Shown one piece after another: positions 236-21,187 of a stretch of DNA of 24,000 nt. The stretch is taken from assembly GCA_030605805.1 (NCBI GenBank), contig JAUWHQ010000049.1:6863-30862 (forward strand), read 5' to 3'. Source of the DNA: Methanosarcinales archaeon (GTDB taxonomy: Archaea > Halobacteriota > Methanosarcinia > Methanosarcinales > Methanogasteraceae). Both the position numbers and the translations under genes were made by a program. Each line of letters starts with the position of its first letter. Within the stretch, counting starts at the first letter, position 1. Under the pieces are notes generated by a model. It saw nothing but the letters and a program-made list of their open reading frames with translations, made no database searches and was not told where the DNA came from.

Positions 236-346
236 TGACCAGAAGTTTTAAGTACTGAATTGGATACCTATAATTCGTACGCGTGATGTGACATGTATTG
301 CGCGTCTGACCCTACAAGAATAAAACCGTAAGGAGGTAATTACACA
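236..346 (+). promoter_or_regulatory. Leader cassette copy A: BRE/TATA-like box, conserved hairpin/palindrome, Shine-Dalgarno site
   Basis: tgaccAGAAGTTTTAAGTActgaat (TATA-like, 243-254) is followed by cTATAATTcg. The hairpin arms ACGCGTG/TGCGCGT (279-305) enclose ATGTGACAT (286-294). AGGAGG lies at 331-336, 10 nt before ATG 347. The same block recurs at 8151-8266 and 12403-12511. Confidence 0.6.
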
Positions 347-1612
347 ATGAGAATTGATAGAATATTGGCTGGAATAGCCATGGGTTTGCTGCTGCTGGCG
401 TCGCCGGCATCCGCATCAGACTACACGCTCGAGATCTTCGGAAACGCAAACGAGGACGACACGATCAACATGCAGGATGTGACCTACACCGAACTGATCA
501 TCCTCGAATACAGAGACAGAACAGAACTGTCGGACGCCAAGTACGACGACAAGATCAACATGCAGGACGTGACGCAGATCGAGCTTGTCATTCTCGGGAA
601 GGAGAAGGAGATAACGCTCATAGATACGGCTGAAAAGATCGTGACTGTGAATAAACCACTGACAAGAATCATTCCCACCTATCCGCAAGCCATTGAGACG
701 TTGCGGTCGCTCAAGGTGCCGAAGGATACCATAGTCGGGATAGGTACATGGCCCACCCCTCTGGATCCGGTCTTCTTCGGAGAGTTCAGTGATACGCCAT
801 GCATCGGAACCGGATGGAATCCCGATGTGGAGGTGATACTGGAACTGGATCCGGATGCTGTCATCCTCTTCGGGATCGGGCGTGTCGATCTTGATCCGGT
901 CCAGGATGTGCTGGAAGTGGCAGGAATAACGGTGCTTCGTTTCAATCTCCAGACGCTGGACATTCATCGAACCGAAGTGGAGAAGCTTGGATATGTCTTT
1001 GGAAAGCGGGACGAAGCTGAAGAGTACCTTGGCTGGCGTGCAGACATTCTGGATTCGATCGAAGAGAGTGTTGCGGGACTCTCCGAAGACGATAAACCGG
1101 ATGTATACTTTATGCCCTCTTTCAAGGACGGTCTTTACTACATCTATGGGCAGTATGCCTACATCGATATGGCGGGCGGCAGGGACGTCTTTGCCGATCA
1201 GCCCGGAAACTACATGTTTGTGGATCCTGAAGAGGTGATAACGCGAAACCCTGATATCATAGTCAGGGTGGCATCATGGGATGCTGGTGGTTATGGTGTT
1301 GCTGCGGGCGAGACCGCAGAGTTTGAAGCGATGAGAGATGAGATCATGAGCCAGCCCGAACTGGAGAATGTCAGGGCTGTGGATGATGGGGAAGTGTACA
1401 TAATCGCTGATCACTTTGTATCGTTCTTCGCAGCCAGCGGATGCAGACAGTTCGTCCAGATAGCGTATCAGGCGAAGTGGTTCCATCCCGAACTCTTCGA
1501 GGATCTGGATCCGGAGGCGATCCACCAGGAGTATCTGACCGAATATCAGGGACTGGACTATGACCTGAGTGAGAACGGCGTATTCGTGTATCCGCCGCTC
1601 GCGGAGAGTTGA
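347..1612 (+). CDS. Secreted ABC-importer substrate-binding protein (Peripla_BP_2 / FhuD-BtuF-like, metal-chelate type) with N-terminal dockerin-like module
   Basis: The signal peptide MRIDRILAGIAMGLLLLASPASA|SDY has no lipobox Cys. A duplicated EF-hand-like dockerin follows. The body shows typical class-III binding-protein blocks (RIIP..P.AIETLRSL...IVGI, LDPDAVILFG, AGITVL) and has no C-terminal TM segment. The SD site is strong. Confidence 0.85.
   Translation: MRIDRILAGIAMGLLLLASPASASDYTLEIFGNANEDDTINMQDVTYTELIILEYRDRTELSDAKYDDKINMQDVTQIELVILGKEKEITLIDTAEKIVTVNKPLTRIIPTYPQAIETLRSLKVPKDTIVGIGTWPTPLDPVFFGEFSDTPCIGTGWNPDVEVILELDPDAVILFGIGRVDLDPVQDVLEVAGITVLRFNLQTLDIHRTEVEKLGYVFGKRDEAEEYLGWRADILDSIEESVAGLSEDDKPDVYFMPSFKDGLYYIYGQYAYIDMAGGRDVFADQPGNYMFVDPEEVITRNPDIIVRVASWDAGGYGVAAGETAEFEAMRDEIMSQPELENVRAVDDGEVYIIADHFVSFFAASGCRQFVQIAYQAKWFHPELFEDLDPEAIHQEYLTEYQGLDYDLSENGVFVYPPLAES
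416..610 (+). other. Dockerin-like module (class A) of the first binding protein
   Basis: SDYTLEIFGNANEDDTINMQDVTYTELIILEYRDRTELSDAKYDDKINMQDVTQIELVILGKEKE contains two Ca-loop-plus-helix segments (N.N.DD.IN..D.....L.IL), as in type-I dockerins. Confidence 0.7.
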
Positions 1613-1641: not shown

Positions 1642-2934
1642 ATGAGAGCAAGTATACGGGTTGGAATAACTATGACTTTGCTGCTGCTGGTGCTCCCAGC
1701 CGCGGCATCAGACTACACGCTTGGCGTCTTCGGCAATGCGAACGAGGACGACACAGTAAACATGCAGGATGTGACGTACACCGAACTGATCATCCTCGAA
1801 TACAGAGATAGAACTGAGCTTGCAGACGCCAAGTACGACGACAAGATCAACATGCAGGATGTGACGCAGATCGAGCTTGTCATTCTTGGAAAAGAGAAGG
1901 AGCTCACATTCGTGGACGGCTTCGGTGAAGCGATGACTGTCGAAAAGCCAGTGGAACGTATTGTCAGCGTATGGTGCACCAATAATGAACTGTTGAAGGT
2001 GCTTGACGCAACCGACAAGATCGTTGGCATAGACGCCGGCATGACCGGGAAGAGTACAACCCTCTTCCCAGAGATCAGTGCTCTGCCGGATTGCGGAGGC
2101 TGGCATGCACCAAATTTCGAGGCGATACTGAGCCAGCATCCTGACATGTACATCCCGTGGCTCATCACAACGGATGATCCAGAGTCCAGCTATGGCATCA
2201 TACGCAAGAGATTCCTGGAGGAGAAACTCGTAAGTGTTCCGGTTCTCTGCATCGACAATAGCGAATACCGCACAGGAGAGTACTTTGTGGAAGAACTGGA
2301 ACGGCTTGGATACATCCTTGATAGGCGAGACGAGTCTGAAGAGTTCACCGAGTTCTATAAAGAGTGCACGGATCAGGTCGCAGAGCAGACAGAGGGACTG
2401 ACCGATGATGAGAAGCCGAGGGTGTGGATCACATCGCTCTTCTTCTCAGGTGGCGAGGTGACAGGTTCGCCTTACGCTTACTCCATCTTTGACCCGGTCG
2501 ATCTCGCAGGTGCAAGAAACATAGCCGAGGGTCTGCCCGGGGGTATGAGGGTGGATCTTGAATGGGTGATTGAGCAGAATCCTGAGTACATATTCATACA
2601 GATATGGGCTGCCGGGAACAGAAAATCGCCTTATGCGCCAGATTACTCGATATCAACGGTAGAAGAACAGGTGAACACAGTCCTGAACTGTCCTGAACTC
2701 GCAAATGTGGATGCTGTGAAGAACGAGAGGGTCTACGTTGTGCAGTATTCACATTTCAGTAAAGGGACATCCCGGTGTTTATGCGTTGCCTACCTGGCAA
2801 AACTGCTCCACCCGGAACTATTCGAGGAGATGGATCCACAGGCGATGCATCAGGAGTATGTAGACCGATTCCTGGGCATGGATGTCAGCGTTGAGAGTGG
2901 TAATTTCCTGTATCCAGCGTTGGAGGAGAGTTGA
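1642..2934 (+). CDS. Second secreted ABC-importer substrate-binding protein (Peripla_BP_2-like) with the same N-terminal dockerin-like module
   Basis: The ORF opens at 1609, but ATG 1642 matches the paralog starts (MRASIRVGITMTLLLLVLPAAA|SDYTLGVFGNANEDD...) and the SD spacing. The dockerin at 1708-1902 is about 89% nucleotide-identical to 416-610 (about 21 mismatches in 195 nt by hand alignment). The binding domain is strongly diverged from gene 1. The C-terminal block LHPELFEEMDPQAMHQEY is shared. Confidence 0.85.
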   Translation: MRASIRVGITMTLLLLVLPAAASDYTLGVFGNANEDDTVNMQDVTYTELIILEYRDRTELADAKYDDKINMQDVTQIELVILGKEKELTFVDGFGEAMTVEKPVERIVSVWCTNNELLKVLDATDKIVGIDAGMTGKSTTLFPEISALPDCGGWHAPNFEAILSQHPDMYIPWLITTDDPESSYGIIRKRFLEEKLVSVPVLCIDNSEYRTGEYFVEELERLGYILDRRDESEEFTEFYKECTDQVAEQTEGLTDDEKPRVWITSLFFSGGEVTGSPYAYSIFDPVDLAGARNIAEGLPGGMRVDLEWVIEQNPEYIFIQIWAAGNRKSPYAPDYSISTVEEQVNTVLNCPELANVDAVKNERVYVVQYSHFSKGTSRCLCVAYLAKLLHPELFEEMDPQAMHQEYVDRFLGMDVSVESGNFLYPALEES

Positions 2935-2964: not shown

Positions 2965-3452
2965 ATGAGACTAACTACAATAGTGGTTGGAATAACCATG
3001 TCGTTGCTGCTGCTCGCACTGCCAGCAGCAGCGTCAGACTACACACCATACTTCTGGTCTGCATCCCGTTACTGTTATGGAAATCGTGGGACCTCAATGT
3101 GATGGGTGTAGGAGAGGAGACTGCAAAGAGCCTTGGTGTAAATGTCGAGCGGACCCGAATCGGTGGGATGATGCTTGCATCGTTCATCACCGCAGTTATT
3201 ATATGTTTCACCGGAATGATCGGGTTTATAGGTCTGGTTGCTCCGCATATCACCCGTATGTGCATCGGTGGAGATAACAGATTTGTACTCCCGGCTTCGG
3301 CACTCTTCGGGGCTGCTTTTCTGGTTGCAGTGGGTATCATCGCAAGAGAAGTCGTAGCACCGGTGATCATCCCCGTGGGGATCATCACATCCTTCGTGGG
3401 AGGTCCTCTCTTCCTTTATCTCATAATACGAAAGAAGAAGGAGTACTGGTGA
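2965..3452 (+). pseudogene. Chimeric remnant: leader, signal peptide and first 4 dockerin codons fused out of frame to the last quarter or so of a FecCD-type permease
   Basis: 2965-3044 encodes MRLTTIVVGITMSLLLLALPAAASDYT, preceded by AGAGG. From 3045 a different frame reads TILLVCIPLLLWKSWDLNVMGVGEETAKSLGVNVERTR...GGPLFLYLIIRKKKEYW, colinear with the C-terminus of 8847-10220. The 45-codon leader ORF stops at 3100-3102, overlapping the GTG/ATG of ORF 3099-3452. Confidence 0.8.
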
Positions 3453-3454
3453 AG

Positions 3455-3690
3455 ATGAAACCGGATATACATGACATAGACTGGAATGGTATGTGGAAGG
3501 ACGCGATAGGGGAGTCGAACTGGAAGCAGAAAGCCGGGATGCCTGAGTTTCAGGGACTGGACGGGTTGACTGGTTCGAGGAACTGGTCCGGCAGAGTGAC
3601 CGTGCAGGGATGATCATGAACCGGATCGAGGTGAAACCGGACTACACGGTTCTTGACATCGGTGCAGGTCCGGGCACGGTTACAATTCGT
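3455..3690 (+). pseudogene. Degraded 5' fragment of a class I SAM methyltransferase, paralog of 5206-6030
   Basis: MKPDIHDIDWNGMWKDAIGESNWKQK... runs to a stop at 3611-3613. A second frame then reads MNRIEVKPDYTVLDIGAGPGTVTI (SAM motif I), after which similarity ends. Compare MIEEIDWNKMWMDATENASWRKR...CTVLDIGAGPGTLTI in the intact gene. Confidence 0.75.
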
Positions 3691-3745
3691 GACCGCTTCC
3701 GATTCACTTATTATGACGGATATGACTCAAAAAGGAGGAAGAACA

Positions 3746-4174
3746 ATGGAAATGAGTAAAGAGATACAGGATATGATAAACGAGAACGTGGTCCATCTGG
3801 CAACCACATCCGGAGATGGCGTACCGAATGTGGTTCCTGTGGGCGGCATACGTGCGATAAGTGACAGCGAGCTCTTGATCGTGGATGTCTTGTTTGACAA
3901 GACGAAGAAGAACCTGATCGAGAACCCGCGTGTTGCAATCGCTATTGAGGTGCTCGGAAAGGGAGCGCCGCGTGGATACCAGCTCAAAGGGCGGGCAACG
4001 ATTCACACGAGCGGTAAGCTCTTCGATGCGGCAGAGAAGATGGTGGAGAGGATGGCAGAGGAGATGCGAAAGAGAGGCTCCGGTCACCATCCGAGCCTGA
4101 CTGTGAAATCCGCGGTTCACGTGGACGTGGAAGCGATATACTCTACGGTCCGCCAGAAGAAGGAGGAGAACTGA
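3746..4174 (+). CDS. Pyridoxamine-5'-phosphate-oxidase-like (split-barrel FMN-binding) protein
   Basis: The ORF opens at 3653, but its first 31 codons derive from the methyltransferase remnant. AGGAGG lies 7 nt before ATG 3746. VVHLATTSGDGVPNVVPVGGIRAISDSELLIVDVLFDKTKKNLIENPRVAIAI is the typical PNPOx-family N-terminal pattern. Confidence 0.7.
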   Translation: MEMSKEIQDMINENVVHLATTSGDGVPNVVPVGGIRAISDSELLIVDVLFDKTKKNLIENPRVAIAIEVLGKGAPRGYQLKGRATIHTSGKLFDAAEKMVERMAEEMRKRGSGHHPSLTVKSAVHVDVEAIYSTVRQKKEEN

Positions 4175-4175
4175 T

Positions 4176-5201
4176 ATGCGAGTCATGGACACGATCCCGG
4201 AGATCGGTTCGGAACCGCTGGACCGGATGACGAAAGGCTGCGAAGCATCGAATATACTGCGAACAGCCATTGATTTTGACCTCTTCGATCTGCTCGAGGA
4301 GTCAAAGACCGCGGAGCAGGTATCATCAGAGACCGGAACCGTTGCATCATTTACAGAGAAGTTTTTAAATGCGCTCTGTACGATAGACCTCCTCTCAAAA
4401 CGTGATGGGAAGTATGCGAACACAAAGCTTGCTTCAACCTTCCTTGTGAAGAAGAGCCCGTTTTACCAGGGAAATATGATCAGACTTTTCAAAAACAGCT
4501 CTCTCAACTGGTCAAGACTGGGTTCGGCAATGAAAGGAGATCTGCCAGATGAGACCGGTGAAAGACCTGAAAGGGTCTTTGATTCCGGTTTTATTCTGGC
4601 GATGGCTGAGGGTTCAATGCGGGGAAGCCTTCATCAAACCGTAAAAGAAGTGTCGGCTCTTCCCGAATTTAAGAGAGCAAGAACGCTTCTTGATCTTGGC
4701 GGCGGGCACGGGCTCTATGCGATAGCGTTTGCTGAGACGAATCCGGAACTTGATGCCACGGTCTTTGATCTGCCGCCTGTAACAGAGGTCACACAAGAGT
4801 TCATCGGAAGGTACGGCATGGACGAGAGGGTCAGTGTCATCGGAGGGGACTTTGCCATGGATGAGATCGGACAGGGATATGACATCGTCTTTGCGTCCGA
4901 CGTCTTCTACCGGAAGCCGGATGCGCTTTCGGGTATTTTTGAGAAGATACACGGTGCGCTGAATGATGGCGGTTCAATCATGCTCAAGCACTGGGTCTTG
5001 AACGATGACCGGACCGCCCCACCCACATCGGTTCTCTTCGATCTGATGCTCTCCCTGCGAGGGGGGAATTGGCATCACATCTATACCGAGGTTGAGTATA
5101 TCGAGCTACTCAAAGGTGCGAGGTTTTCAGATATTCGCGTTCTGGACGTATCATCCCAGGTAAGCCCGTCTGTTGTCATCGTCGGAAATAAAGAGGCATG
5201 A
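4176..5201 (+). CDS. SAM-dependent O-methyltransferase (family 2 type, with N-terminal dimerisation/wHTH-like region)
   Basis: LLDLGGGHGLYAIAFAETNPELDATVFDLPPVTE...RVSVIGGDFAMDEIGQGYDIVFASDVFY matches the Methyltransf_2 pattern (DvGGG.G, FDLP.V, GDFF). AAGGAGGAG lies upstream of the ATG. Confidence 0.8.
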   Translation: MRVMDTIPEIGSEPLDRMTKGCEASNILRTAIDFDLFDLLEESKTAEQVSSETGTVASFTEKFLNALCTIDLLSKRDGKYANTKLASTFLVKKSPFYQGNMIRLFKNSSLNWSRLGSAMKGDLPDETGERPERVFDSGFILAMAEGSMRGSLHQTVKEVSALPEFKRARTLLDLGGGHGLYAIAFAETNPELDATVFDLPPVTEVTQEFIGRYGMDERVSVIGGDFAMDEIGQGYDIVFASDVFYRKPDALSGIFEKIHGALNDGGSIMLKHWVLNDDRTAPPTSVLFDLMLSLRGGNWHHIYTEVEYIELLKGARFSDIRVLDVSSQVSPSVVIVGNKEA

Positions 5202-5205
5202 GATC

Positions 5206-6030
5206 ATGATCGAAGAGATAGACTGGAATAAGATGTGGATGGATGCGACTGAGAATGCCTCGTGGAGAAAGCGACGTGGGAATATGACAGAGTTCTGGAA
5301 TAAGAGATCCCGGCGGTATAGCGAGTCACTGAAGCACAATGATCGCTCTATGCAGATAATATCAAAATTGGATATTGATCCGGAGTGCACCGTACTTGAT
5401 ATCGGTGCAGGACCGGGTACGCTCACAATTCCACTCGCAAGAATCGTTAAACACGTAACGGTCGTGGAACCATCGATCGGAATGCTCGCCTGTCTGAAAG
5501 AGAATACGGCAGATGAGGGACTTACGAACATAACCTGCATAAACCGGAAATGGGAGGATGCCGTGCCCGGTGTGGATTTTGATGAGCACGACATTGTGAT
5601 AGCATCCTATTCGCTTGCGATGCTCGATATGAAAGCGGCACTATCGAAGATGAATGAGGTTGCAAGACGATCTGTTTACCTGTTCACCTTTGCAGGAGGT
5701 CGTGCATGGGATTATAACGAACTCTGGCCCAGATTGTATGACGAGGAGTATCGAGCAGCGCCCGATTACATCTATCTCTACAACATCCTCCACGGGATGG
5801 GTATCCACGCTGATGTTGAGATCAGAGAGACCGAGTACAAAGAGCGTTTCTCAAGCATGGACGAAGCGGTGGAGCAATGGATGGAGAACCTTGATTCCAC
5901 AACTTCGGGGGCAGAGGAAGTGATCAGATCGCACCTATCAGAGAATCTGGTTAAGGAAAACGGGGCATTCTGGTCGAAACATGAAATGAAGGGCGCTATG
6001 ATACACTGGAGGAATGACAATGGGAATTGA
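5206..6030 (+). CDS. Class I SAM-dependent methyltransferase
   Basis: The ORF opens at 5173. ATG 5206 fits both the SD (AAGAGG) and the paralog fragment start. Motif I is VLDIGAGPGTLT, followed by VVEPS and DIVIASYSL. Confidence 0.8.
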   Translation: MIEEIDWNKMWMDATENASWRKRRGNMTEFWNKRSRRYSESLKHNDRSMQIISKLDIDPECTVLDIGAGPGTLTIPLARIVKHVTVVEPSIGMLACLKENTADEGLTNITCINRKWEDAVPGVDFDEHDIVIASYSLAMLDMKAALSKMNEVARRSVYLFTFAGGRAWDYNELWPRLYDEEYRAAPDYIYLYNILHGMGIHADVEIRETEYKERFSSMDEAVEQWMENLDSTTSGAEEVIRSHLSENLVKENGAFWSKHEMKGAMIHWRNDNGN

Positions 6031-6394
6031 GATAAGAACGATCGACGAAGCCGAAGGTCTTGAGACTTCGGAAGGTGTGATGAAGCCACTCTTATTCGGC
6101 GAGAATCTGGCGGTTATGCATCTTCTGATTCCGGCGGGTCTTGAGGTCTCACCTCATGCGCACCCGGGAGAAGGCGTTCTGTACTGTCTGAGCGGCGAGC
6201 TGGATGTTGTATCGGGAGGCGAAACTGTGACGATTTCCAGTGGAACTGCGATGCTGGTTCCGCCCGGCACAGAGGTTGGCATCAAGAACCAGAAGGATGC
6301 AGCCGTGAATGCGCTGCTGATCTCATCTCCGCCAACTGTGAGATCGGTTGAGGAACTCACAAATCTTATAACCAGTCACAAAGAAGGTAAATAA
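6014..6394 (+). CDS. Cupin-domain protein
   Basis: The two-motif cupin pattern is present (H.HPGEGVLYCLSGE...G.....G....P.G......N). GGAGG at 6008-6012 favours ATG 6020 as the true start over 6014. Confidence 0.7.
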   Translation: MTMGIEIRTIDEAEGLETSEGVMKPLLFGENLAVMHLLIPAGLEVSPHAHPGEGVLYCLSGELDVVSGGETVTISSGTAMLVPPGTEVGIKNQKDAAVNALLISSPPTVRSVEELTNLITSHKEGK

Positions 6395-8071: not shown

Positions 8072-8150
8072 AGACGTAGGCTAAGACTCGGATTGTCGAA
8101 GTGTGGGGTGTGAAAGAGTGGGTGGTTTGTCTACTGATTCATGTTATGCT

Positions 8151-8266
8151 GATGATCGAAAGTCTTAAGTAATGAATTAAGTATCTATAATTCGCATGCG
8201 CTATGTAACATATATCGTGCATATAACTACATAAAGTAAAAATCCGCCATAAGGAGATATTATACA
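8151..8266 (+). promoter_or_regulatory. Leader cassette copy B
   Basis: gatgatCGAAAGTCTTAAGTAatgaat is followed by cTATAATTcg. The hairpin arms ATGCGC/GTGCAT (8196-8222) enclose ATGTAACAT (8203-8211). AAGGAG lies before ATG 8267. Confidence 0.6.
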
Positions 8267-8842
8267 ATGGGAATGAATACAACATTGGTTGGAATAGCCC
8301 TGGCAATGCTCTTGCTGGCATTGCCCGCGGCTGCATCTGACTACACGCTCGGCATCTTCGGGAATGCAAACGAAGATGACACAATCAACATGCAGGATGT
8401 GACGTACACCGAGCTAATCATCCTCGAATACAGGGACAGAACAGAGCTTTCCGATGCAAAGTATGATGATAGGATCAACATGCAGGAGGTCGATGACTGG
8501 ATCTTCGATGACATCACAAAGACGTTCATCCTCGACGATGAGATGCGGAAGTTCTTCGAGGAGAACAACCCGTGGGCGCTCGAAGAGATCGGAAGAATGC
8601 TCCTTGAGGCTTATGAGCGAGGACTGTGGGATGCAGACCCTGAGGTGATCGACGGACTGAAGAACGCATACCTCGAGATGGAGGGCTGGATCGAGGAGCG
8701 CATGGGCGACGTGAAAGGCGACTTCCAGGGCGGATCGATCGATGTGATGACGATGGCGGATGTCGCCGGCTGGAAGGAGAAGGTCGAGAAGGTCCTGAAG
8801 ACCGGATCCGATATACGAGTCAGTCAAGGAGAGGTGACGTGA
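8267..8842 (+). CDS. Chimeric ORF: signal peptide plus 1.5 dockerin repeats fused in frame to a CobN / Mg-chelatase-H C-terminal tail
   Basis: Residues 1-75 (to nt 8491) are MGMNTTLVGIALAMLLLALPAAA|SDYTLGIFGNANEDDTINMQDV...DAKYDDRINMQEV. The remainder, DDEMRKFFEENNPWALEEIGRMLLEAYERGLWDADPEVIDGLKNAYLEMEGWIEE, matches the conserved extreme C-terminus of CobN/ChlH/BchH (..EMR..L.E.NP......FLEA..RG.W......I..L...Y.E.E..IE). Confidence 0.7.
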   Translation: MGMNTTLVGIALAMLLLALPAAASDYTLGIFGNANEDDTINMQDVTYTELIILEYRDRTELSDAKYDDRINMQEVDDWIFDDITKTFILDDEMRKFFEENNPWALEEIGRMLLEAYERGLWDADPEVIDGLKNAYLEMEGWIEERMGDVKGDFQGGSIDVMTMADVAGWKEKVEKVLKTGSDIRVSQGEVT

Positions 8843-8846
8843 TAAT

Positions 8847-10220
8847 ATGGCTACGGCAACGGGAGAAAGTCACACAGTAACCGCAGACGAGATCAGAGAG
8901 CAGTACAAGAAGTTCGTCGGAAGGAAGATATTCTTCATCTTCTTCTTCATAGCCCTGATCGTCGGAATAACAGGAGTCTCCACATCGCTCGGGTCTGCAG
9001 ACCTCACGGTCTGGGACTCTTATTCATCGATACTCAGAAAACCGTTCCCGAATACGTTCGAGTCAAAGTATATCTTCACATTGGACGATGTTCCTGGAAG
9101 CGATGGTGAGAGACTCAAACAATACCTCATAGATGAATACGGTATCGTCTGGGTGCAAAGTGCAGAGATCAGCAAATCCGCGGACGGTAAAATCACTATT
9201 ACCGGTGAAGGTGACAATAACGTCGAAATCATGCTTGATGAAAGGGATACGGAAAAAATGACCGTAAAAATCAGCGGTGATATAGATCCGGGTCACAGAG
9301 TCAACGATTTCAAAGTTAAAGAGGTGAACGGCGAGCTCCACATACACGAGTCGACATGGCTTGCAGATGTCTGCGTCTGGAATCTCAGGCTCCCCAGAAT
9401 CATCCTCGGCATCGTGGCAGGCATCGGTCTTGGACTTGCAGGTGCGGTGATGCAGGCGATACTCAGAAATCCGCTTGCAAGCCCGTACACGCTCGGAATC
9501 TCGTCAGGAGCGGGGTTCGGCGCTTCGCTTGCAATTCTCGCTGGTGCAGGCTTCGTCGGTGGGAAATATCTTATCATCGGAAACGCATTCGTATTCGCGC
9601 TGCTGGTTTCGTTTATCATCCTCGGATTATCGAGCCGCAAAGGCGCAACGCCTGAAACGATGATTCTCGCGGGTATTGCGATGATGTACCTATTCGGCGC
9701 GATGACAACAATTCTTCAGTACTTTGGCGAGGCAGAGGCTGTGAAGGAAGCTGTCTTCTGGATGGTTGGTGACCTCAACAGGGCATCGTGGTCCGTTGTG
9801 ACGATCGTGTCGGTTGTGATCGCTCTCTGCACCCCATACCTCCTGGCAAAGTCCTGGGACCTGAACGTGATGGGCGCAGGAGATGAGACTGCGAAGAGTC
9901 TTGGTGTGAATGTGAAGCGCACCCGGGTCACAACGATGATTGTCTCAACAGTAATGGTCGCAACCATCGTCTCTTTCACAGGCACGATCGGGTTCATCGG
10001 GCTCGTTGCCCCGCACATGACACGTCTGGCTATCGGAGGCGATAACAGGTACGTGCTTCCGGTTTCAGGTCTCTTAGGTGCGGTGATTCTCATCAGCGCA
10101 GACCTTGTGGCAAGAAGGATCATAGCTCCTGTAATCCTCCCTGTTGGAGCGGTGACCGCATTTATGGGAGCTCCACTCTTTCTTTACCTGATAATGAGAC
10201 GAAGGAGGGAATACTGGTGA
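8847..10220 (+). CDS. FecCD/BtuC-family ABC importer permease with a ~96-aa insertion in the first extracytoplasmic loop
   Basis: The C-terminal 330 aa or so are typical FecCD (WNLRLPRI, NPLASPYTLGISSGA, GDETAKSLGVNV, FIGLVAPH, EYW). 9066-9353 has no counterpart in the paralog 11002-11997. Confidence 0.85.
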   Translation: MATATGESHTVTADEIREQYKKFVGRKIFFIFFFIALIVGITGVSTSLGSADLTVWDSYSSILRKPFPNTFESKYIFTLDDVPGSDGERLKQYLIDEYGIVWVQSAEISKSADGKITITGEGDNNVEIMLDERDTEKMTVKISGDIDPGHRVNDFKVKEVNGELHIHESTWLADVCVWNLRLPRIILGIVAGIGLGLAGAVMQAILRNPLASPYTLGISSGAGFGASLAILAGAGFVGGKYLIIGNAFVFALLVSFIILGLSSRKGATPETMILAGIAMMYLFGAMTTILQYFGEAEAVKEAVFWMVGDLNRASWSVVTIVSVVIALCTPYLLAKSWDLNVMGAGDETAKSLGVNVKRTRVTTMIVSTVMVATIVSFTGTIGFIGLVAPHMTRLAIGGDNRYVLPVSGLLGAVILISADLVARRIIAPVILPVGAVTAFMGAPLFLYLIMRRRREYW

Positions 10221-10984
10221 AACTAAGAGTAAACAATGTCGAATTCGCATACAATAGCACGCCAGTTCTTGAAAGCATATCCATGGAACTGGATCGATCA
10301 GAGATGCTCGGCATCGTGGGTCCGAACGGTGCCGGCAAATCCACGCTGATCCGGTGTGTCGACCGGATCCTGACTGCAAGAGGAGGAACCATCCTCCTGG
10401 ATGAGAATGACATCAGCAAGATGACGAGAATGGAGATTGCAAGGAGGATGGGCTATGTGCCCCAGACCACGACACGCGTCTTTCCTGCCACGGTCTTTGA
10501 CACCGTCCTCATGGGAAGACGCCCGCATCTCGGATGGAAGAGTAGCGAGGAGGACGTGGACAAAGTTCTGGAGATTCTGGAACTCCTCGGGATCATGGAG
10601 TTTGCGATGAGGGACTTTAACGAGATCAGCGGAGGTCAGCAGCAGAAGGTCCTGATCGCACGGGCGCTTGCGCAGGAAGCGGATATTCTTCTACTGGATG
10701 AGCCCACAAGCAATCTCGACATACGGCACCAGCTCGAGGTGATGGATATCATGAAGGGCATCGTGAGGAAGAAGGGGATCTCTGCGATCGTTGCGATCCA
10801 TGACCTGAACCTTGCTTCGAGATACACCGATAGACTGCTCATGATGAATGGCGGCAGGATCTTTGCAGCAGGGGATCCTGAGTCGGTGCTCACTGTTGAG
10901 AACATCAGGCGTGCTTATGGTGTGGAAGCACTGGTGAAGAGCGATGGAGAGAGACCGTACATCATTCCGGTGAGACCGGTGTGA
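10217..10984 (+). CDS. ABC importer ATP-binding protein (FepC/FecE/BtuD-like)
   Basis: The GTG start overlaps the permease stop (GTGA). Walker A is GPNGAGKST, the signature is ISGGQQQKV, Walker B is ILLLDEPTSNLD, and the H-loop is AIHDLN. Confidence 0.9.
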   Translation: MKLRVNNVEFAYNSTPVLESISMELDRSEMLGIVGPNGAGKSTLIRCVDRILTARGGTILLDENDISKMTRMEIARRMGYVPQTTTRVFPATVFDTVLMGRRPHLGWKSSEEDVDKVLEILELLGIMEFAMRDFNEISGGQQQKVLIARALAQEADILLLDEPTSNLDIRHQLEVMDIMKGIVRKKGISAIVAIHDLNLASRYTDRLLMMNGGRIFAAGDPESVLTVENIRRAYGVEALVKSDGERPYIIPVRPV

Positions 10985-11001: not shown

Positions 11002-11997
11002 ATGTCGGTATCAACAGGGAGGATAGCGCTCTTTGTGGTCGTTCTCCTGCTCACAATCGTGGCTTTGGTGGGCAGTTCCGTAGTCACCGGATCTTCAGCT
11101 GTAACCGTGGACGATGCCCATTCTGCAATCCTGCACAAGTTCTTCCCGGACCGCTATGAGCCGAACTGGCTTGCAGATGTATGCGTCTGGAATCTCCGGT
11201 TTCCCCGCATCCTCCTTGCCATACTGGCAGGCATCTCTCTCGGGGCTGCGGGCGCTATCATGCAGTGGGCACTTAAGAATCCGCTTGCTTCGCCATACAC
11301 GCTTGGAATTTCACACATAGTGGCGTTCGGCACATCTATTACCATACTCTTTGGCTTTGGATATATTGGAGGGAAATTCGTTATCATAGGGGCTGCCGGA
11401 ATCTCTGCCCTGATAGCGACAGTGATCATCCTTTATATCTCAAGCCGCAGGTGGGCGACCCCTGAACGGGTCGTACTGATAGGCATCGTGATGATGATTC
11501 TCTTCGGTGCATTGACTACGATACTCATGTACTTTGGCGCGGCAGAGGCTGTGAAGGAGGCGGCATTCTGGATGGTAGGTAGCCTCAACCGGGCATCGTG
11601 GAACGTGCTGGCATACATGGCTGGCACAATTGTGCTCTGTGCGATTCTCCTACTCCTGCTGATCTTCCTGCCATCACTCTTCGGTGTAGATGAGAGGCGT
11701 ATCAGAACATCTGCAATGGTTGTTGCGAGTCTTCTTACCGCAATCACGGTCTGTTTCACAGGAACGATTGGATTCGTCGGGCTATTGGCTCCGCATATCT
11801 GTCGTCGGGTCATCGGAGATTATCCCAGGTTTGTAATTCCGGTATCAGGACTTGTTGGCGCGGTACTGCTACTTGGATCGGACCTGGTGGCAAGAACGGT
11901 CATTTCACCGGTTATTCTCCCTGTGGGTGTGTTGACAACACTGATGGGTGCTCCGTTACTTGTGTATCTCATAGTGCGAGAGGGGATAAGAGGTTGA
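11002..11997 (+). CDS. Second FecCD-family permease, probable heterodimer partner
   Basis: WLADVCVWNLRFPRILLAILAGISLGAAGAIMQ, NPLASPYTLGIS and GFVGLLAPH are present. The conserved L..G...A.SLG.N block is replaced by LFGVDERRIR, a roughly 10-aa deletion relative to 8847-10220. Confidence 0.8.
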   Translation: MSVSTGRIALFVVVLLLTIVALVGSSVVTGSSAVTVDDAHSAILHKFFPDRYEPNWLADVCVWNLRFPRILLAILAGISLGAAGAIMQWALKNPLASPYTLGISHIVAFGTSITILFGFGYIGGKFVIIGAAGISALIATVIILYISSRRWATPERVVLIGIVMMILFGALTTILMYFGAAEAVKEAAFWMVGSLNRASWNVLAYMAGTIVLCAILLLLLIFLPSLFGVDERRIRTSAMVVASLLTAITVCFTGTIGFVGLLAPHICRRVIGDYPRFVIPVSGLVGAVLLLGSDLVARTVISPVILPVGVLTTLMGAPLLVYLIVREGIRG

Positions 11998-12269: not shown

Positions 12270-12402
12270 GTGAGGTGGTCGAGACTGCAAAAAAAGGCAG
12301 GAACTTGCTTGATGAAGAATCCTGCAAGGTCTCCAGCGTATGGTCTGAAAGATCGTGGGTATGGATAGCGGGCAACAGATTTACTGGTTTATGATACGAT
12401 AC

Positions 12403-12511
12403 TGATCGAAAGTTTTAAGTTCTGAATAAAAAGATTCACAATTTACACGCGTGATGTAGCATATATTGTGTATGTAATCACACAAAATAAAAAATAAGAG
12501 GTTAATATACA
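12403..12511 (+). promoter_or_regulatory. Leader cassette copy C
   Basis: tgatCGAAAGTTTTAAGTtctgaat is present. The hairpin arms ACACG/TGTGT (12445-12471) enclose ATGTAGCAT (12454-12462). AAGAGG lies before ATG 12512. Confidence 0.55.
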
Positions 12512-12787
12512 ATGAGAATAAATACAATATTGATTGGGATAATCATGCTGTTATCAACATTACCAGTGGCTGCGTCCGACTGCACACTCGAGATCTCCGG
12601 CAATGCCAACGAGGATGACACCATAGATATGCAGAATTTGACTCATACCAAATCCATCATCCTCGAATACGGAGATCAGACCCAAGCTCGGAGATGTAAA
12701 CAACGATGGCAGGATCACCACAGCAGACTCGCTGCTCGCACTCCGGATGGCTGCCGGGAGTGTGGCTCCGGACATGGAACGCGCTGA
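12512..12787 (+). CDS. Signal peptide plus half a class-A dockerin; apparently the frameshifted 5' end of the giant surface-protein gene
   Basis: MRINTILIGIIMLLSTLPVAA|SDCTLEISGNANEDDTIDMQNLTHTKSIILEYGDQT is homologous to the other leaders up to about 12680. Beyond that point this frame is noise, and the +1 frame reads KLGDVNNDGRITTADSLLALRMAAG. Confidence 0.6.
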   Translation: MRINTILIGIIMLLSTLPVAASDCTLEISGNANEDDTIDMQNLTHTKSIILEYGDQTQARRCKQRWQDHHSRLAARTPDGCRECGSGHGTR

Positions 12788-15700
12788 TGTGAATGCCGAT
12801 GGCAGGGTGAACTCGCTTGATGCGCTCATGATACTGATGATGGCAGAGAAGACGCAAGTGTGTGTCAATGCTCCGGAAGTTGTGTCTGGTACGTTTGAGG
12901 TCACGATCGACATCCACAATGTTGCTGATCTCGATTCCGGGCAGTTCGATCTCTCGTTTGATCCGGGTGTTGTAAACGTGACTGCGGTCTATGACGGAAA
13001 CATAGCCGGCAGACAGGTGCCGGTAGAGTCATGGAAGTTCATGGACGCAGGTACGATTCGCGTGCTCTTCAATACCATCGGTATCTGCGGGGTCAGCGGG
13101 TCCGGATATGTGGCAAGGATAGACTTTGAGGTAACCGGATCGCATGGGGATATTAGCGTTCTGGACTTATCGGATGTGGGGCTTGTTGATACGGGCGCAG
13201 GTGCGATACCAGCAGTCCGGATTGATGATGAGGTGACCATTGGAGAGCATACTCCGGTAAATCAGGTTCGCAACATAAACACTGGTGAAATCTTTTCCTC
13301 CATCAAGGACGCAATCAATGACTATGATACATCGGATGGGCATACAATCGAGGTCGGAGATGGTGTTTACCACGAGAACGTGAAAGTCACCAAATCCCTA
13401 ACGATTCGGTCTCTGAATGGGTCCGCTGATTGCATTATTCAGGGTGCAAGGCGACGTGAGCATGTCGTTACAGTAACCGCAGATTGTGTGAATGTGAGCG
13501 GTTTTACGGTGAATGGAGCAACATCCCGTAAAGCCGGGATATATCTTAATGCAGGTTACTGCAACGTTTCCACAAATAACTGTTCAAATAATTATATCGG
13601 CATCCACCTCGATGGTTCAAACAACAACATCATATCGGGCAATGACTGCTCAAACAACGGGGGTGAAGGTATCTACCTTGACGGTTCAAGCAACAACCGC
13701 GTATCAAGCAATAATTGCTCGAACAACAGGGGCGATGGCATCTACATCAGTGGTTCAAGCAACAACAAATTAACAGGCAATATCATGTTTGAAGGTGGGA
13801 TATTTATCGGGGGCGACTCACTGAGTGATTACACGCATGAGATAGACGAAACGAATACGGTGAACGGAAAACCAGTTTATTACCGGAAGGATATTGAATG
13901 TGGGAGAATCCCCGACGGAGCTGGTCAGGTAATACTTGTGAATTGCAGGGACGTTCTGGTTGAAAATCAAGAATTGAACAATGGGGGCGTTGGTGTAGAA
14001 GCGGTCTTCTCTTCAAATATCACAGTAAGAAACAACAATTGCTCGAACAACCGACATGATGGCATCTATTTCTTTCATTCAAGTAACAGCGCCATATTGG
14101 GCAATAATTGCTCGAACAACCGACATGATGGCATCGACCTCGATGGTTCAAGCGACAACAGCATATCAGGCAACAACTGCCCAAACAACCAACGCGGCAT
14201 CGACCTCGATGGTTCAAGCGACAACAGCATATCGAGCAATAATTGCTCGGATAACTGGGTTGGCATTGACCTCGATGGTTCAAGCAACAACAACATATCA
14301 GGCAACAACTGCTCAAACAACCAACGCGGCATCTATTTCTCTCATTCAAGCAACAACGCCATATTGGGCAATAATTGCTCGAACAACCACGGGGGTGGCA
14401 TCTGCCTCTATTGTTCCAGTAACAACGATATATCACGCAATAATTGCTCAGATGGTGGGGCTGGCATCCGTCTCTGGGGTTCAAGCAACAGCAAATTAAC
14501 AGGCAATATCATGTTTAAAGGTGGAATAGTTATTGAGGGTGGTTCACTGAGCGATTACGCGCATGAGATAGACAAAAGCAACATAGTGAACGGTAAGCCG
14601 GTTTATTACTGGAAGGATGTGGACGGGGGACGCATTCCAGATGGTGCCGGGCAGGTAATTCTCGTTGATTGCAGTAATGTTTTGGTTGAAGAGCAGAACT
14701 TAAACGATTTGGACACCGGTATAACAGTCGCTTTCTCTTCCTATCTTACTTTAAAAAACAACAACTGCTCAAATAACCGGGGTGGCATCCGCCTCTATGA
14801 ATCAGGTAACAACCGCATATCTGGCAACAATTGCTCAAACAACAACCAACGTGGCATCGACCTCGATGATTCAATCGACAACAGTATATCCGGTAATAAT
14901 TGCTCGAACAACCACTGGAATGGCATCAGCCTCGGTGGTTCAAGCAACAACCGTATATCGGACAATACTTGCTCAAACAACTGGAATGGCATCAGCCTAT
15001 ATGGTTCAAGCAACAACCGCATATCGGACAATACTTGCTCAAACAACGAGGGGGATGACGTCTGCCTCTGCAGTTCAAGCAACAGCAAATTAACAGGCAA
15101 TATCATGTTTGGGACTGGAATAATCATTAGTGGCAGATCACTTAGCTGTTACATGCATGAGATCGACAAAACGAACACGGTGAACGGAAAACCGGTTTAT
15201 TACTGGAATGATATCAAATCCGGGAGAATTCCCGAAGGAGCGGGTCAGGTAATACTTGTGAATTGCAAGGATGTTCTGGTTGAAGATCAGGAATTGAACA
15301 ATGTACGCGTTGGTATAGACGTGGTATTCTCTTCATATATTGTGATACGAAACAATGATTGCTCAAAAAACAAGCATGTGGGCATCCGCCTCTATGAATC
15401 CTGCAACAACGCGGTATCAAGCAATAATTGCTCAAACAGCCGGAATGGTATCTATCTCGAGGAATCATACAGCAATGCTATATTCCTTAACAATTTTATA
15501 AACAACACCGATAACACCTATTTCCGTTCCTCCACAAACATCTGGAACTCAACAGCAAGGATAAACTACACCTACAAAGACATGCCGTTCACGAACTATT
15601 TAGGCAACTACTGGGATGATTACGAAGGAAGCGATTTGGGCGGGGATGGAATTGGCAATTCGCCCCATGATATATGTCCGGACGTGGATAATTTCCCGTT

Positions 15701-19283: not shown

Positions 19284-19902
19284 CGAAACCTATCAAGTAC
19301 TCATCAGCGCGACAGAACTATCGTTTGGTCTGCTCAGTAACACGGTACCGTTCATGGTGCTCGGTGTGGTCTTCGCCGAGTTCATCGTTGCTTTGAGGGT
19401 TGTGAACAAGATCGCATACATAGCGAGACCGATCTCAAACTTTGCCAACCTGAGAGATGAGTGTGGAGCCAGTTTTATGACCGCATTCATATCTCCGACA
19501 TCCGCCAATTCGATGCTTGCCTCTTTTTACAACGATAAACTGATCGAGAAGAAGGAGCTCTTCGTAGCGTCCATGATGACCTCCTTTCCAGCGATTGTGA
19601 TGCACTGGCGTGCACTGCTTCCAGTGCTTATACCTCTCATGGGTATGACCGGACTCATCCACTTCGGTATACTGATGCTCATCGGATTCATCAAGACGTT
19701 CTTCATCATGCTCGCGGGCAGGTTTCTTCTGGAGAAGAGGGATCATAAGCCTGTAGATCGCCCGACAGAGGGGCGTCCGGAGTTAAAAGAAGCTTTCAAG
19801 ATCAGTTTGCAAGCGTCTAAGGGTACCGTCAAGCGAATACTGTGCATGACCATCCCGATCTTCTTTGTTGTCTGTGTCCTGATAACACTTCGGAGCCTTT
19901 GA
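19252..19902 (+). CDS. N-terminal part of a nucleoside-recognition (Gate/FeoB-C-like) domain membrane protein, interrupted by a frameshift
   Basis: The product is polytopic and hydrophobic. ISPTSANSMLASFYNDKLIEKKELFVASMMTSFPAIV resembles the Gate-domain core. The frame stops at 19900-19902 while the +1 frame stays open from 19886. The start (19252, 19267 or 19273) overlaps the end of the giant gene. Confidence 0.5.
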   Translation: MSLRVMLMPYSETYQVLISATELSFGLLSNTVPFMVLGVVFAEFIVALRVVNKIAYIARPISNFANLRDECGASFMTAFISPTSANSMLASFYNDKLIEKKELFVASMMTSFPAIVMHWRALLPVLIPLMGMTGLIHFGILMLIGFIKTFFIMLAGRFLLEKRDHKPVDRPTEGRPELKEAFKISLQASKGTVKRILCMTIPIFFVVCVLITLRSL

Positions 19903-20023
19903 TCTGCTCGCATGCCACCTGGGTGGCATCTGTGAGTACTTTCCGATACCGGCTGCGGGCTTAAGCATCATCGCAGCACAGTTTGCAAACTTCATAGCAG
20001 CACATTCGACAGCCGGCACTCTC

Positions 20024-20236
20024 TTGTCAACCGGGGTGCTCACCAGCAAAGAAGTCATTCTGACACTGCTTGTTGGTGATGTTCTATCGAGTGTTATGAT
20101 GCTGATGAAATATATGATACCGTACTACATCGGGATATTCGGTCCGAGGATCGGGATGCAGATACTCGTGATAGCAACAGCGATAAGAACGGTGGTCATG
20201 TTTGCGGTGATCTTTGCGCTTGCATTGTTCTGGTGA
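20024..20236 (+). CDS. C-terminal part of the same Gate-domain membrane protein (frame open from 19886)
   Basis: From 19886 the frame reads HFGAFDLLACHLGGICEYFPIPAAGLSIIAAQFANFIAAHSTAGTLLSTGVLTSKEVILTLLVGDVLSS...FALALFW. This hydrophobic sequence continues directly from the upstream ORF and has no ATG start or SD of its own. Confidence 0.45.
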   Translation: MSTGVLTSKEVILTLLVGDVLSSVMMLMKYMIPYYIGIFGPRIGMQILVIATAIRTVVMFAVIFALALFW

Positions 20237-20270
20237 TGTATATCATCCGCACTCTTTGATGCTACTAACA

Positions 20271-21180: not shown

Positions 21181-21187
21181 GGATATT

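Follow-up and report, generated by a model that had tools for sequence, protein, structure and literature searches.

A conserved 5' cassette with a predicted dockerin module precedes divergent substrate-binding proteins in Methanosarcinales and has a history decoupled from that of its cargo

A 24,000-nt stretch of contig JAUWHQ010000049.1 from a Methanosarcinales archaeon (GenBank assembly GCA_030605805.1, positions 6,863 to 30,862), here called the window and supplying all coordinates given below, contains five copies of a 5' cassette in which a signal peptide and a predicted dockerin module, in some copies behind a promoter-like block and leader, stand in front of coding sequences (the cargo) that differ widely. 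This raises the question of whether the 5' ends have stayed alike under selection alone or because sequence is exchanged between genes, as gene conversion or modular spread of the cassette would bring about. Sequence comparison with relatives points to concerted evolution of the family by gene conversion together with whole-cargo exchange, on top of extreme purifying selection.

The substantial genes of the window all lie on the + strand, and the five copies, starting at 347, 1642, 2965, 8267 and 12512, were all located where the first-pass annotation of this DNA had placed them. Every copy has the Shine-Dalgarno site AAGGAGGT and a signal peptide of 21-23 codons ending in P-A-A-A, followed by SDYTL(G/E)(I/V)FGNANEDDTINMQDVTYTELIILEYRDRTELSDAKYDDKINMQDVTQIELVILGKEKE. 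Copies 1, 4 and 5 additionally include the block (A/G)(A/G)AAGT(T/C)TTAAGT approximately 95-105 nt 5' of the ATG and a leader of ~95 nt with an inverted repeat, while copies 2 (1642) and 3 (2965) start right after the stop codon of the preceding gene and have no promoter block. In all signal peptides a hydrophobic core precedes an A-x-A motif and none includes a lipobox cysteine; a Sec-type signal peptide cleaved before SDYT is predicted. The DNA identity between 416-610 and 1708-1902, put at about 89% by the earlier hand alignment, was computed as 89.2%. Copy 1 is 85.8% identical to copy 4 up to the junction of the latter and 74.8% identical to copy 5, and copies 2 and 4 are 85.2% identical. 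The promoter/leader blocks (215-346, 8132-8266 and 12382-12511) share 68-71% pairwise identity, as compared with 51.2 +/- 2.2% (maximum 56.7%) in a shuffled control. Between genes 1 and 2, cargo identity is 34% at the protein level and ~45-55% at the DNA level.

Genes 1 and 2 were compared in Nei-Gojobori sliding windows. In the module, the nonsynonymous divergence (dN) is 0.014-0.03 and the synonymous divergence (dS) is 0.56-0.84, with a dN/dS of ~0.02-0.04, whereas in the cargo dN is 0.5-1.2 and dS is largely saturated. There are 21 differences in the 192-nt module, or 28 in 210 nt when the linker is included, and 24% of the synonymous codons differ. The pair is under very strong purifying selection, which accounts for most of its conservation at the protein level. 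Recent duplication of the two genes was rejected given the saturated cargo dS. Thus, as an explanation for genes 1 and 2 themselves, the proposed conversion finds nothing recent to support it, and purifying selection dominates there; at the level of the family it holds, as judged from 113 genes and the individual cases described below.

To place the cassette among relatives, one genome per species was scanned, giving 72 loci (L001-L072) from 20 metagenome-assembled genomes (MAGs) or records. Almost all loci are in Methanosarcinales MAGs, which include ANME-2c-GOS (ANME, anaerobic methanotrophic archaea), other MAGs assigned to Methanosarcinales or Methanobacteriota, Ca. Ethanoperedens, an ANME-3 MAG and Methanothrix. 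A protein search returned more than 2400 clusters in the family. A homologue search with the 70-aa module alone found only short or partial proteins and was unusable for a survey of architectures, though it brought out frameshifted and single-repeat variants. One MAG has 40 complete family genes among the fetched loci, one relative has a tandem array of nine, and 87 of 141 cassette copies sit within arrays without a promoter.

For 113 complete family genes from these relatives, synonymous codon differences were counted at identical residues. Module and cargo do not share one level of synonymous divergence: in paralogs with cargo less than 60% identical it is lower in the module (0.30-0.32 versus 0.56-0.57), and in 37 between-genome pairs with cargo at least 85% identical it is higher (0.277 versus 0.169, with the module exceeding the cargo in 36 of the 37). 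Over all pairs the two are uncorrelated (r = 0.013), and the most similar modules (0.255) are those of adjacent tandem paralogs. The cassette and cargo trees are not congruent either, as the nearest neighbour of the module is also that of the cargo in just 11 of 113 genes, as compared with 62-69 of 113 when, as a length control, 64-codon pieces of cargo are matched against the remaining cargo. Neither of the two results that the first-pass annotation had named as refuting its idea was thus obtained. Because the histories of module and cargo are decoupled in these 113 genes, gene conversion and cargo swapping act on the cassette.

Individual loci in the relatives include both expected signs of interlocus gene conversion, namely within-genome closeness confined to the module and an identical tract with sharp borders. 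In UBA203 (L009), two neighbouring genes with cargo at 30% identity have a tract of ~230 nt that is 100% identical. It starts at module codon 4, ends near cargo codon 10 and is flanked by a ~75% identical signal peptide on one side and unalignable cargo on the other. Seven tandem paralogs in B64_G16 have their own version of the module, 53% identical to the common type; in the comparison of one of them with a MAG266 gene (L064_3217 and L071_3524), the cargo is 83% identical and the module 53%. The module has its nearest neighbour in its own genome in 7/7 genes of B64_G16, 2/2 of UBA203 and 3/3 of MAG232, whereas for the cargo this is so in 3/7, 0/2 and 0/3, respectively. Locus L038 of MAG266 is a three-way mosaic: it matches window gene 1 at 80-97% in the upstream gene, the promoter, the signal peptide and the module, and L041 at 93-100% in the cargo, and the switch falls at the border of module and cargo.

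Across 97 paralogs of nine genomes the module hardly varies, and its synonymous sites are bimodal, some being fixed position-specifically and others saturated. Near-fixed codons include GAT at D21, GAC at D34 and GTG at V22 (92/97 each), ATC at I29 (94) and TAC at Y32 (97/97), whereas R33 uses six codons and G9 four. In the cargo, codon diversity at conserved residues is normal. The bias towards C/G-ending codons would follow from selection for translational accuracy, but GAT at D21 would not.

The name dockerin, given to the module in the first-pass annotation, is borne out by the predicted fold and not by Pfam, and the module is accepted here as a dockerin on the strength of the former. An AlphaFold2 model built from 121 more diverse family members reached a mean predicted local distance difference test score (pLDDT) of 86.4 and a predicted template modelling (TM) score of 0.76, with helices at residues 19-29 and 49-59. 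A run on 34 near-identical sequences was discarded, having given a beta-strand model with a pLDDT of 62.8 and meaningless Foldseek hits. A confident dockerin model of the 70-75-residue module was therefore obtained only with diverged sequences in the alignment, and the near-identical set led to a wrong one. In a Foldseek search of the PDB, the top 31 matches were all dockerins, with probabilities of 0.87-1.0 and target-normalised TM scores of 0.37-0.83 (0.63-0.83 without three double-dockerin chains). Root-mean-square deviations (rmsd) were mostly 1.2-2.6 Å, with two at 3.3 and 4.1 Å, the best being 1.2-2.3 Å over 55-66 residues. The module contains two tandem segments that each consist of a 12-residue calcium loop (D/N at positions 1, 3, 5, 9 and 12) and a helix; the loops are N-A-N-E-D-D-T-I-N-M-Q-D in repeat 1 and D-A-K-Y-D-D-K-I-N-M-Q-D, with Lys at position 3, in repeat 2. 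At loop positions 10-11 the common type has M-Q, B64_G16 has M-R and M-L, and the Methanothrix type has E-E and G-E. A homologue of the latter type, P0073 (62% identical), was scored by the Pfam family Dockerin_1 (PF00404) at E = 0.081 and 13.6 bits, below the cut-off of 22.9. In addition, the DNA of cassette repeat 2 aligns with repeat 1 of a canonical dockerin at the junction of copy 5. Since Pfam misses the module, dockerin counts for ANME are underestimates.

Copies 3, 4 and 5 end at junctions that had been described as illegitimate. Comparison with intact orthologues identifies those of copies 3 and 4 as deletion junctions, whereas that of copy 5 is homology-guided. Copy 3 is joined at ~3044-3050, out of frame, to the C-terminal part of a FecCD permease, and a 117-aa open reading frame (ORF) in this remnant corresponds to positions 202-311 of the 311-position Pfam FecCD profile; the permease is intact in L065 and L064, in which homology to the window begins at 3049. 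In copy 4 the crossover lies within 8483-8490, and what follows is the C-terminal end, ~118 codons, of a CobN-type chelatase (Pfam CobN-Mg_chel 2.4e-19, covering 1035-1089 of the 1090 profile positions; NCBIfam CobN 4.7e-51). A complete CobN (1249-1290 aa) and a ChlD-like gene precede the FecCD gene in L030 (ANME-2c-GOS), L028 (CSMAG_893) and L061 (ANME-3 MAG), and in L030 and L028 a cassette-bearing binding-protein gene lies 5' of ChlD/CobN. Copy 4 is thus an in-frame deletion of ~6.5 kb that removed a binding protein, ChlD and most of CobN. At its junction ATCAACATGCAGGA is joined to GGTCGATGAC, with the 5-nt microhomology CAGGA in both parents. A second in-frame CobN fusion with other endpoints is found in L045 (CSMAG_1137, 3181-3618), where CTGATCGAC is joined to GGACTGAAG with 8 nt of microhomology; measured against intact orthologues, the microhomologies of the two junctions are CAGGA and TGATCGAC. 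The fusion at 8267-8842 of the window and that of L045 are independent of each other. Both lie directly 5' of a FecCD gene, the stop codon in the window being at 8842 and the next ATG at 8847, and the fusions may keep promoter drive and translational coupling intact despite the loss of the chelatase genes.

Copy 5 runs at ~12684-12690 into a canonical Dockerin_1 domain (Pfam 7e-14) that heads a 2178-aa NosD/beta-helix protein. In orthologues of this giant protein in ANME-2c MAGs (L047, L039 and L048), its own signal peptide, MKTKY...SAD, directly precedes LGDVN of the canonical dockerin, whereas in the window this start is replaced by the promoter, signal peptide, dockerin repeat 1 and linker EYGDQTQ of copy 5. 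The join lies where the cassette (CAG CTT GCA GAT) resembles the canonical dockerin (ATG CTC GGC GAC), and one extra base at ~12684-12687 (CCCAAG as compared with CACAG) puts copy 5 out of frame with it. Copy 5 is a homology-guided fusion with a 1-nt indel, and because nine substitutions in its first repeat affect otherwise invariant positions, it has been decaying for some time.

Copies 3, 4 and 5 each mark a break in synteny. The gene order in ANME-2c-GOS is giant protein, Gate-domain gene, cassette-binding protein, ChlD, CobN and FecCD; in the window, the promoter and cassette that follow the Gate gene in relatives now precede the giant protein (12308-12720 and 19237-20237, as compared with L030, L028 and L045).

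A DNA profile of the module identified 225 copies in 749 kb, 183 of them complete, 13 truncated at a contig end and ~14 internal and partial (~15 with window copy 3, which the profile missed). Of the 14 internal breakpoints, eight or nine coincide with, or are no more than 3 nt from, AACATGCAGGAyGT, a direct repeat that occurs twice per cassette. These are at window 8483-8490, L020:3258, L038:5907, L034:~2612, L042:~127, L049:~127, L023:6521 and 7888, and L033:471/472. With ~15 internal partial events per 210 nt of module and ~11 per 978 nt of cargo, the per-nucleotide excess is ~6-fold, an upper estimate as a truncated module is easier to recognise. The earlier suggestion that the cassette is a recombination hotspot is therefore supported but not proven, the excess of breakpoints speaking for it and the possible inflation of the ratio by detection bias against it. 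In more than 90 of 97 copies the motif AACATGCAGGAyGT is fixed, synonymous positions included. A bolder proposal, that AACATGCAGGAyGT(GAC), 14-20 nt, is a dedicated break or pairing signal and the cassette a built-in, homology-based device for shuffling cargo, is quite improbable in our estimation. If it were true, these archaea could use the device to reshuffle, activate or drop binding proteins from a repertoire of at least 40 under one promoter and docking tag, and the cassette would do the work of integron or antigenic-variation cassettes without a recombinase.

Other irregular copies were seen in the relatives. Single-repeat dockerin variants (P0049, P0051 and L033:432-534) are consistent with recombination between the two INMQDVT repeats, and several frameshifted cassette ORFs are found on long contigs. 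The 13 contigs that start or end within a cassette belong to L008, L010, L011, L013, L016, L021, L023, L025, L036, L061, L063 and L078; because the cassette repeat fragments assemblies in this way, family size per MAG is underestimated.

In archaeal promoters, a purine-rich transcription factor B recognition element (BRE) is followed by an A/T-rich TATA box ~25 nt 5' of the transcription start. A BRE/TATA-like block aligns across 52 cassette promoters from 10 genomes, with A/T columns more than 90% conserved. The sequence R-A-A-A-G-T-T-T-T-A-A-G-T is conserved in the 52 copies at a fixed distance to the ATG, and in 53 copies the block lies 150-200 nt, most often 170-185 nt, before the module start. 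Judged by the archaeal consensus, it probably functions as the promoter. From the TATA-like block to the ATG, the 52 promoter-bearing copies have three groups of conserved columns, which are the block itself, a TAT/GAT stretch ~20 nt downstream, and the core TATGTAACATATATT with alternating purine/pyrimidine arms. What had been described as a conserved hairpin is a conserved imperfect inverted repeat, and convincing evidence for an RNA hairpin did not come from RNAalifold, pairing controls or fold z-scores. RNAalifold predicted zero pairs on the leader alignment. In the named stem, 75.5% of cells pair, as compared with 72.9% in shuffles and 74% when partners are slid by +2; the three window leaders, with fold z-scores of -1.8, -1.1 and -0.1, are no more stable than shuffled sequence. 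An RNA hairpin was rejected, since the pairing is indistinguishable from an effect of the alternating purine/pyrimidine composition, and an Rfam and tRNA scan of the leader gave no match. Of 34 matches to the core motif in 749 kb, 28 are cassette leaders and three more lie behind the same TATA block; a wider regulon marked by the motif outside cassettes was not found in these 749 kb. Archaeal repressors usually bind near the transcription start. Since the core is almost confined to cassette leaders and is near the expected transcription start, we lean towards an operator common to all array promoters rather than an RNA element. The promoter and leader of copy 4 align almost identically with L045:41-157 of CSMAG_1137, and the region 5' of copy 5 (12308-12420) resembles L045:2983-3095.

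Taken together, these observations would be explained if the cassette were the common 5' end of a hugely expanded family of secreted ATP-binding cassette (ABC) substrate-binding proteins in ANME-2c-like Methanosarcinales. The first gene of an array would carry the BRE/TATA promoter and inverted-repeat leader, and later genes only the Shine-Dalgarno site, signal peptide and dockerin, with co-regulation through the common promoter and leader. After export by Sec and cleavage between A-x-A and SDYT, the N-terminal type-I-like dockerin would hold the binding protein on a cohesin-bearing surface scaffold near the FecCD/ABC importer, and this docking would replace the lipid or PGF-CTERM anchor in proteins that have no lipobox. 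As all paralogs would have to fit the same cohesin, a uniform dockerin would be selected, and its dN of ~0.02 attests to extreme purifying selection. Conversion between paralogs would spread and homogenise lineage-specific versions of the dockerin. The shared homology would also permit exchange of whole cargo between loci and seed deletions and fusions, such as copy 3 (out of frame into FecCD), copy 4 (in frame) and copy 5, in which a promoter, signal peptide and half a dockerin appear to have been joined to the canonical dockerin at the head of a giant surface protein. The whole of this explanation, from the shared 5' end and docking to selection, conversion, cargo exchange, deletions and fusions, is considered probable.

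Purifying selection by itself, with a module protein and some codons that cannot change and no exchange between genes, would account for the module dN/dS of the window pair and for its differences at a quarter or so of synonymous codons, and the many synonymous sites fixed to C/G-ending codons at invariant residues are as translational accuracy predicts. It cannot, however, produce orthologues with a module more diverged than the cargo, a sharp-bordered identical tract between 30%-identical paralogs, or seven paralogs with one genome-specific module while the cargo is 83% identical across genomes, and it does not fit GAT at D21 beside GAC at D34; as a sole cause it is very improbable. Conservation of a nucleotide-level element in the module, such as an mRNA structure, regulatory target or recombination signal, with the protein domain secondary, would fit the fixed synonymous sites in AAC ATG CAG GAT GTG and ATC ATC CTC (91-97 of 97 copies, with saturated neighbours) and the clustering of breakpoints at AACATGCAGGAyGT. 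Against this, the protein is confidently predicted to fold as a dockerin with its calcium-loop residues in place, the divergent Methanothrix and B64_G16 lineages keep the protein pattern and not the DNA, and there is no Rfam match, so that such an element is an unlikely primary cause.

Assemblers that cross over between near-identical cassettes could create false mosaics and junctions. The contigs of relatives that end in the cassette show that the repeat disturbs assembly, all of the data are MAGs, and the copy 4 junction was not recovered from other metagenomes, its 20-mer having only three chance matches, in unrelated DNA, among Joint Genome Institute (JGI) metagenomes. However, a chimeric assembly is disfavoured because the 5-8 nt that the junctions share with the second parent are far below any k-mer size used for joining, and because modules of paralogs from one genome, at ~87% identity, match without a break over no more than ~35 nt. 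The in-frame CobN fusions of two assemblies have different endpoints, the degeneration of copy 5 at invariant residues would have required evolutionary time, and the excess module divergence of orthologues extends over nine MAGs from several sources; an artefact is thus highly unlikely. A rival of more weight is capture, in which a promoter, signal peptide and dockerin unit is grafted at its 3' border onto existing genes, so that whole 5' ends move and there are no short tracts. Copy 5, whose graft partner is not a binding-protein gene, has this form, as does the L038 mosaic, which keeps the 5' parts of one locus and the cargo of another, and copy 4 and L045 retain the promoter before importer genes. 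But the L009 tract starts inside the module and leaves the signal peptide outside it, as a short conversion tract would, and most family members are in arrays without a promoter. As a complete account, capture is possible though rather doubtful; capture and conversion use the same homology and are not mutually exclusive.

The explanation by conversion, cargo exchange and selection on a docking module has points against it as well. No recent conversion tract was found between the window copies in the comparison of the genes 1 and 2 modules. Fixed codons beside saturated ones are not predicted by conversion alone, which suggests added selection at the nucleotide or codon level. The dockerin assignment rests on a predicted structure and not on a solved one: Dockerin_1 had no match at E <= 10 in the window module, a sequence profile search of the PDB with the module returned nothing, and hhalign of the module with the canonical dockerin of the window gave a probability of 0.7%. 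The comparison sequences are all MAG contigs. No exact match to the gene 1 protein is on record among public assemblies, and neither these nor the JGI metagenomes provided a second, independent assembly of the window junctions.

The cargo of genes 1 and 2 (PF01497) is that of Peripla_BP_2 ABC substrate-binding proteins of the iron-complex/corrinoid type, and the closest relatives of gene 1 are 90-94% identical. As expected for binding proteins of a FecCD-type importer, they are linked to FecCD permease genes (8847-10220 and 11002-11997) and an ABC ATPase gene (10217-10984). The rest of the window has genes for FecCD permeases, ABC ATPases, an ABC-2 exporter, methyltransferases and two cohesin proteins. 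Cohesin sequences are found at 20314-22933 and in modules inside the giant protein, and the two cohesin proteins are, from their context, candidate docking partners of the cassette dockerin. Integrase or recombinase domains were absent from the 18 ORFs scanned and no attC-like site was found in the window. An origin as a mobile element, integron or phage was rejected, there being no recombinase or mobile-element genes among the window ORFs. The coordinates of the cassette copies and associated genes are given in Table 1.

Table 1. Positions of the cassette copies and associated features in the window
Feature	Position	Strand	Basis or remark
Copy 1 BRE/TATA-like block AGAAGTTTTAAGT	241-253	+	Aligned in 52 cassette promoters
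Copy 1 leader inverted repeat, ACGCG...CGCGT around core GATGTGACATGTATT	278-306	+	Conserved in 52 copies
Copy 1 Shine-Dalgarno site AAGGAGGT	330-337	+	Nearly all copies, 7-9 nt before ATG
Copy 1 putative Sec-type signal peptide MRIDRILAGIAMGLLLLASPASA	347-415	+	Translation; predicted cleavage before SDYT
Copy 1 predicted dockerin module, 64 codons, two loop-helix repeats (GNANEDDTINMQD..., DAKYDDKINMQD...)	416-607	+	Predicted fold
Gene 1, dockerin-tagged substrate-binding protein, 421 aa	347-1612	+	Pfam Peripla_BP_2 1.9e-21
Gene 2, dockerin-tagged substrate-binding protein, 430 aa	1642-2934	+	Pfam Peripla_BP_2 1.5e-17
Gene 2 cassette (copy 2) without promoter	Signal peptide 1642-1707, module 1708-1899	+	
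Copy 3, signal peptide and SDYT only, no promoter, ends at deletion junction	2965-3044	+	
FecCD permease remnant, C-terminal ~135 codons	3045-3452	+	117-codon ORF 3099-3452 Pfam-matched
Copy 4 BRE/TATA-like block GAAAGTCTTAAGT (8158-8170), leader, Shine-Dalgarno site	8158-8266	+	
Copy 4 in-frame fusion ORF, 191 aa	8267-8842	+	Dockerin 8336-8490 to second INMQ, then CobN C-terminal tail
Copy 5 BRE/TATA-like block GAAAGTTTTAAGT (12408-12420), leader, Shine-Dalgarno site	12408-12511	+	
Copy 5 signal peptide, degenerate first dockerin repeat, linker EYGDQTQ	12512-12686	+	
Canonical dockerin, then giant NosD/beta-helix protein with cohesin-like modules	12678-19283	+	Dockerin_1 7e-14
Two cohesin-domain proteins	20314-21180, 21188-22933	+	Pfam Cohesin 1.8e-10, 8.3e-10

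Several further features of these genes were recorded. The FecCD permease at 8847-10220 has an extra N-terminal region of ~170 residues, the FecCD domain occupying residues 170-451 of 457; judged by its sequence, this extension, which is kept in L026, L045 and L030, may consist of a single hydrophobic helix and then a soluble segment. A cluster at 3653-6394, flanked by the transporter gene sets, encodes a PNPOx-like protein, an O-methyltransferase, a second S-adenosylmethionine (SAM) methyltransferase and a cupin. Synteny of this cluster extends to L065, L064, L035 and L012, and modification of a cofactor or ligand is one possibility for its role. In the giant protein (12747-19283, 2178 aa; NosD 1.6e-166, Beta_helix 1.5e-135), 11 NosD/beta-helix stretches are accompanied by cohesin-like modules, and its DNA is rich in internal repeats (families D1-D7). 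At many loci, the final ~50 codons of the binding proteins (WFHPELFEDLDP..HQEY..G.F.YP.LEES) and the spacer that follows (1460-1640 and 2780-2960) show 70-86% DNA conservation, so that the block of homology common to array units spans the gene junction. C-terminal remnants of cargo precede some cassettes, as in L019:1928-2014.

The module resembles type I cellulosomal dockerins, such as Clostridium thermocellum Doc48S (PDB 2MTE) and that of C. cellulolyticum (2VN5), in having two tandem repeats of calcium loop and helix, on which its predicted fold superposes with the best rmsd values given above and a Foldseek probability of 1.0. The repeats are near-duplicates, as in dockerins of the dual-binding kind, and the sequence is likewise uniform across the many cargos of one organism. 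Unlike type I dockerins, it is N-terminal, right after the signal peptide, rather than C-terminal, PF00404 is blind to it, and loop positions 10-11 are Met-Gln and not Ser/Thr; its cargo is a transport binding protein instead of a glycoside hydrolase, and its host is an archaeon. In the PGF-CTERM-anchored binding proteins of TIGR04281, a homologous binding domain (gene 1 matches at 1.2e-16) is likewise kept at the surface of an archaeon without an outer membrane, but by a C-terminal covalent lipid anchor, as compared with the N-terminal, non-covalent docking tag that the cassette would provide. Membership of gene 1 in this family was rejected, as it scores 60.9 bits against a cut-off of 325.

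Dockerin-bearing substrate-binding proteins are described as common in ANME, the same organisms as here, in section 32 of Chadwick et al. 2022 (PMC9012536), where NikA/OppA and TroA types lie near multi-cohesin scaffold-like proteins; the combination of a dockerin and a binding protein as such is therefore already known. That section deals with domain architectures only, and a shared DNA cassette, concerted evolution, cargo swapping and truncated copies are not described within it. Concerted evolution by conversion between prokaryotic paralogs, as in the duplicated mtrA of methanogens (PMC4632066) and in a survey (PMC6053082), is similar in that paralogs within a genome are closer than orthologues and identical tracts have sharp borders. 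According to their abstracts, those papers treat duplicated or paralogous genes, whereas here dozens of paralogs are pooled and only a 5' module of 200-400 nt is affected, with cargo diverging to 30%. Integron cassettes and shufflons are alike by analogy only, in placing a common expression platform before interchangeable cargo; they differ from the present case in that no recombinase gene or attC-like site was found in the window and exchange apparently proceeds by ordinary homology, and the cassette is not a member of either class. Both components are thus of known kinds, namely the dockerin-tagged binding protein of ANME and the gene conversion by which paralogs evolve in concert. What is new is their combination, in which a DNA cassette from promoter to dockerin is present in dozens of paralogs, the history of the module is decoupled from that of a cargo that diverges freely, and rearrangement breakpoints lie in the cassette.

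ANME-2c archaea cannot be grown in pure culture, and their acquisition of metals and corrinoids and the organisation of their cell surface are inferred from genomes alone. The shared promoter/leader and docking tag in dozens of genes points to a single regulon and a single cohesin receptor. A short domain-coding module can evolve in concert across at least 40 paralogs while the cargo diverges to 30% identity, and the same module is the site at which the arrays are rearranged. Phylogenies of genes in this family must therefore leave out the 5' module.

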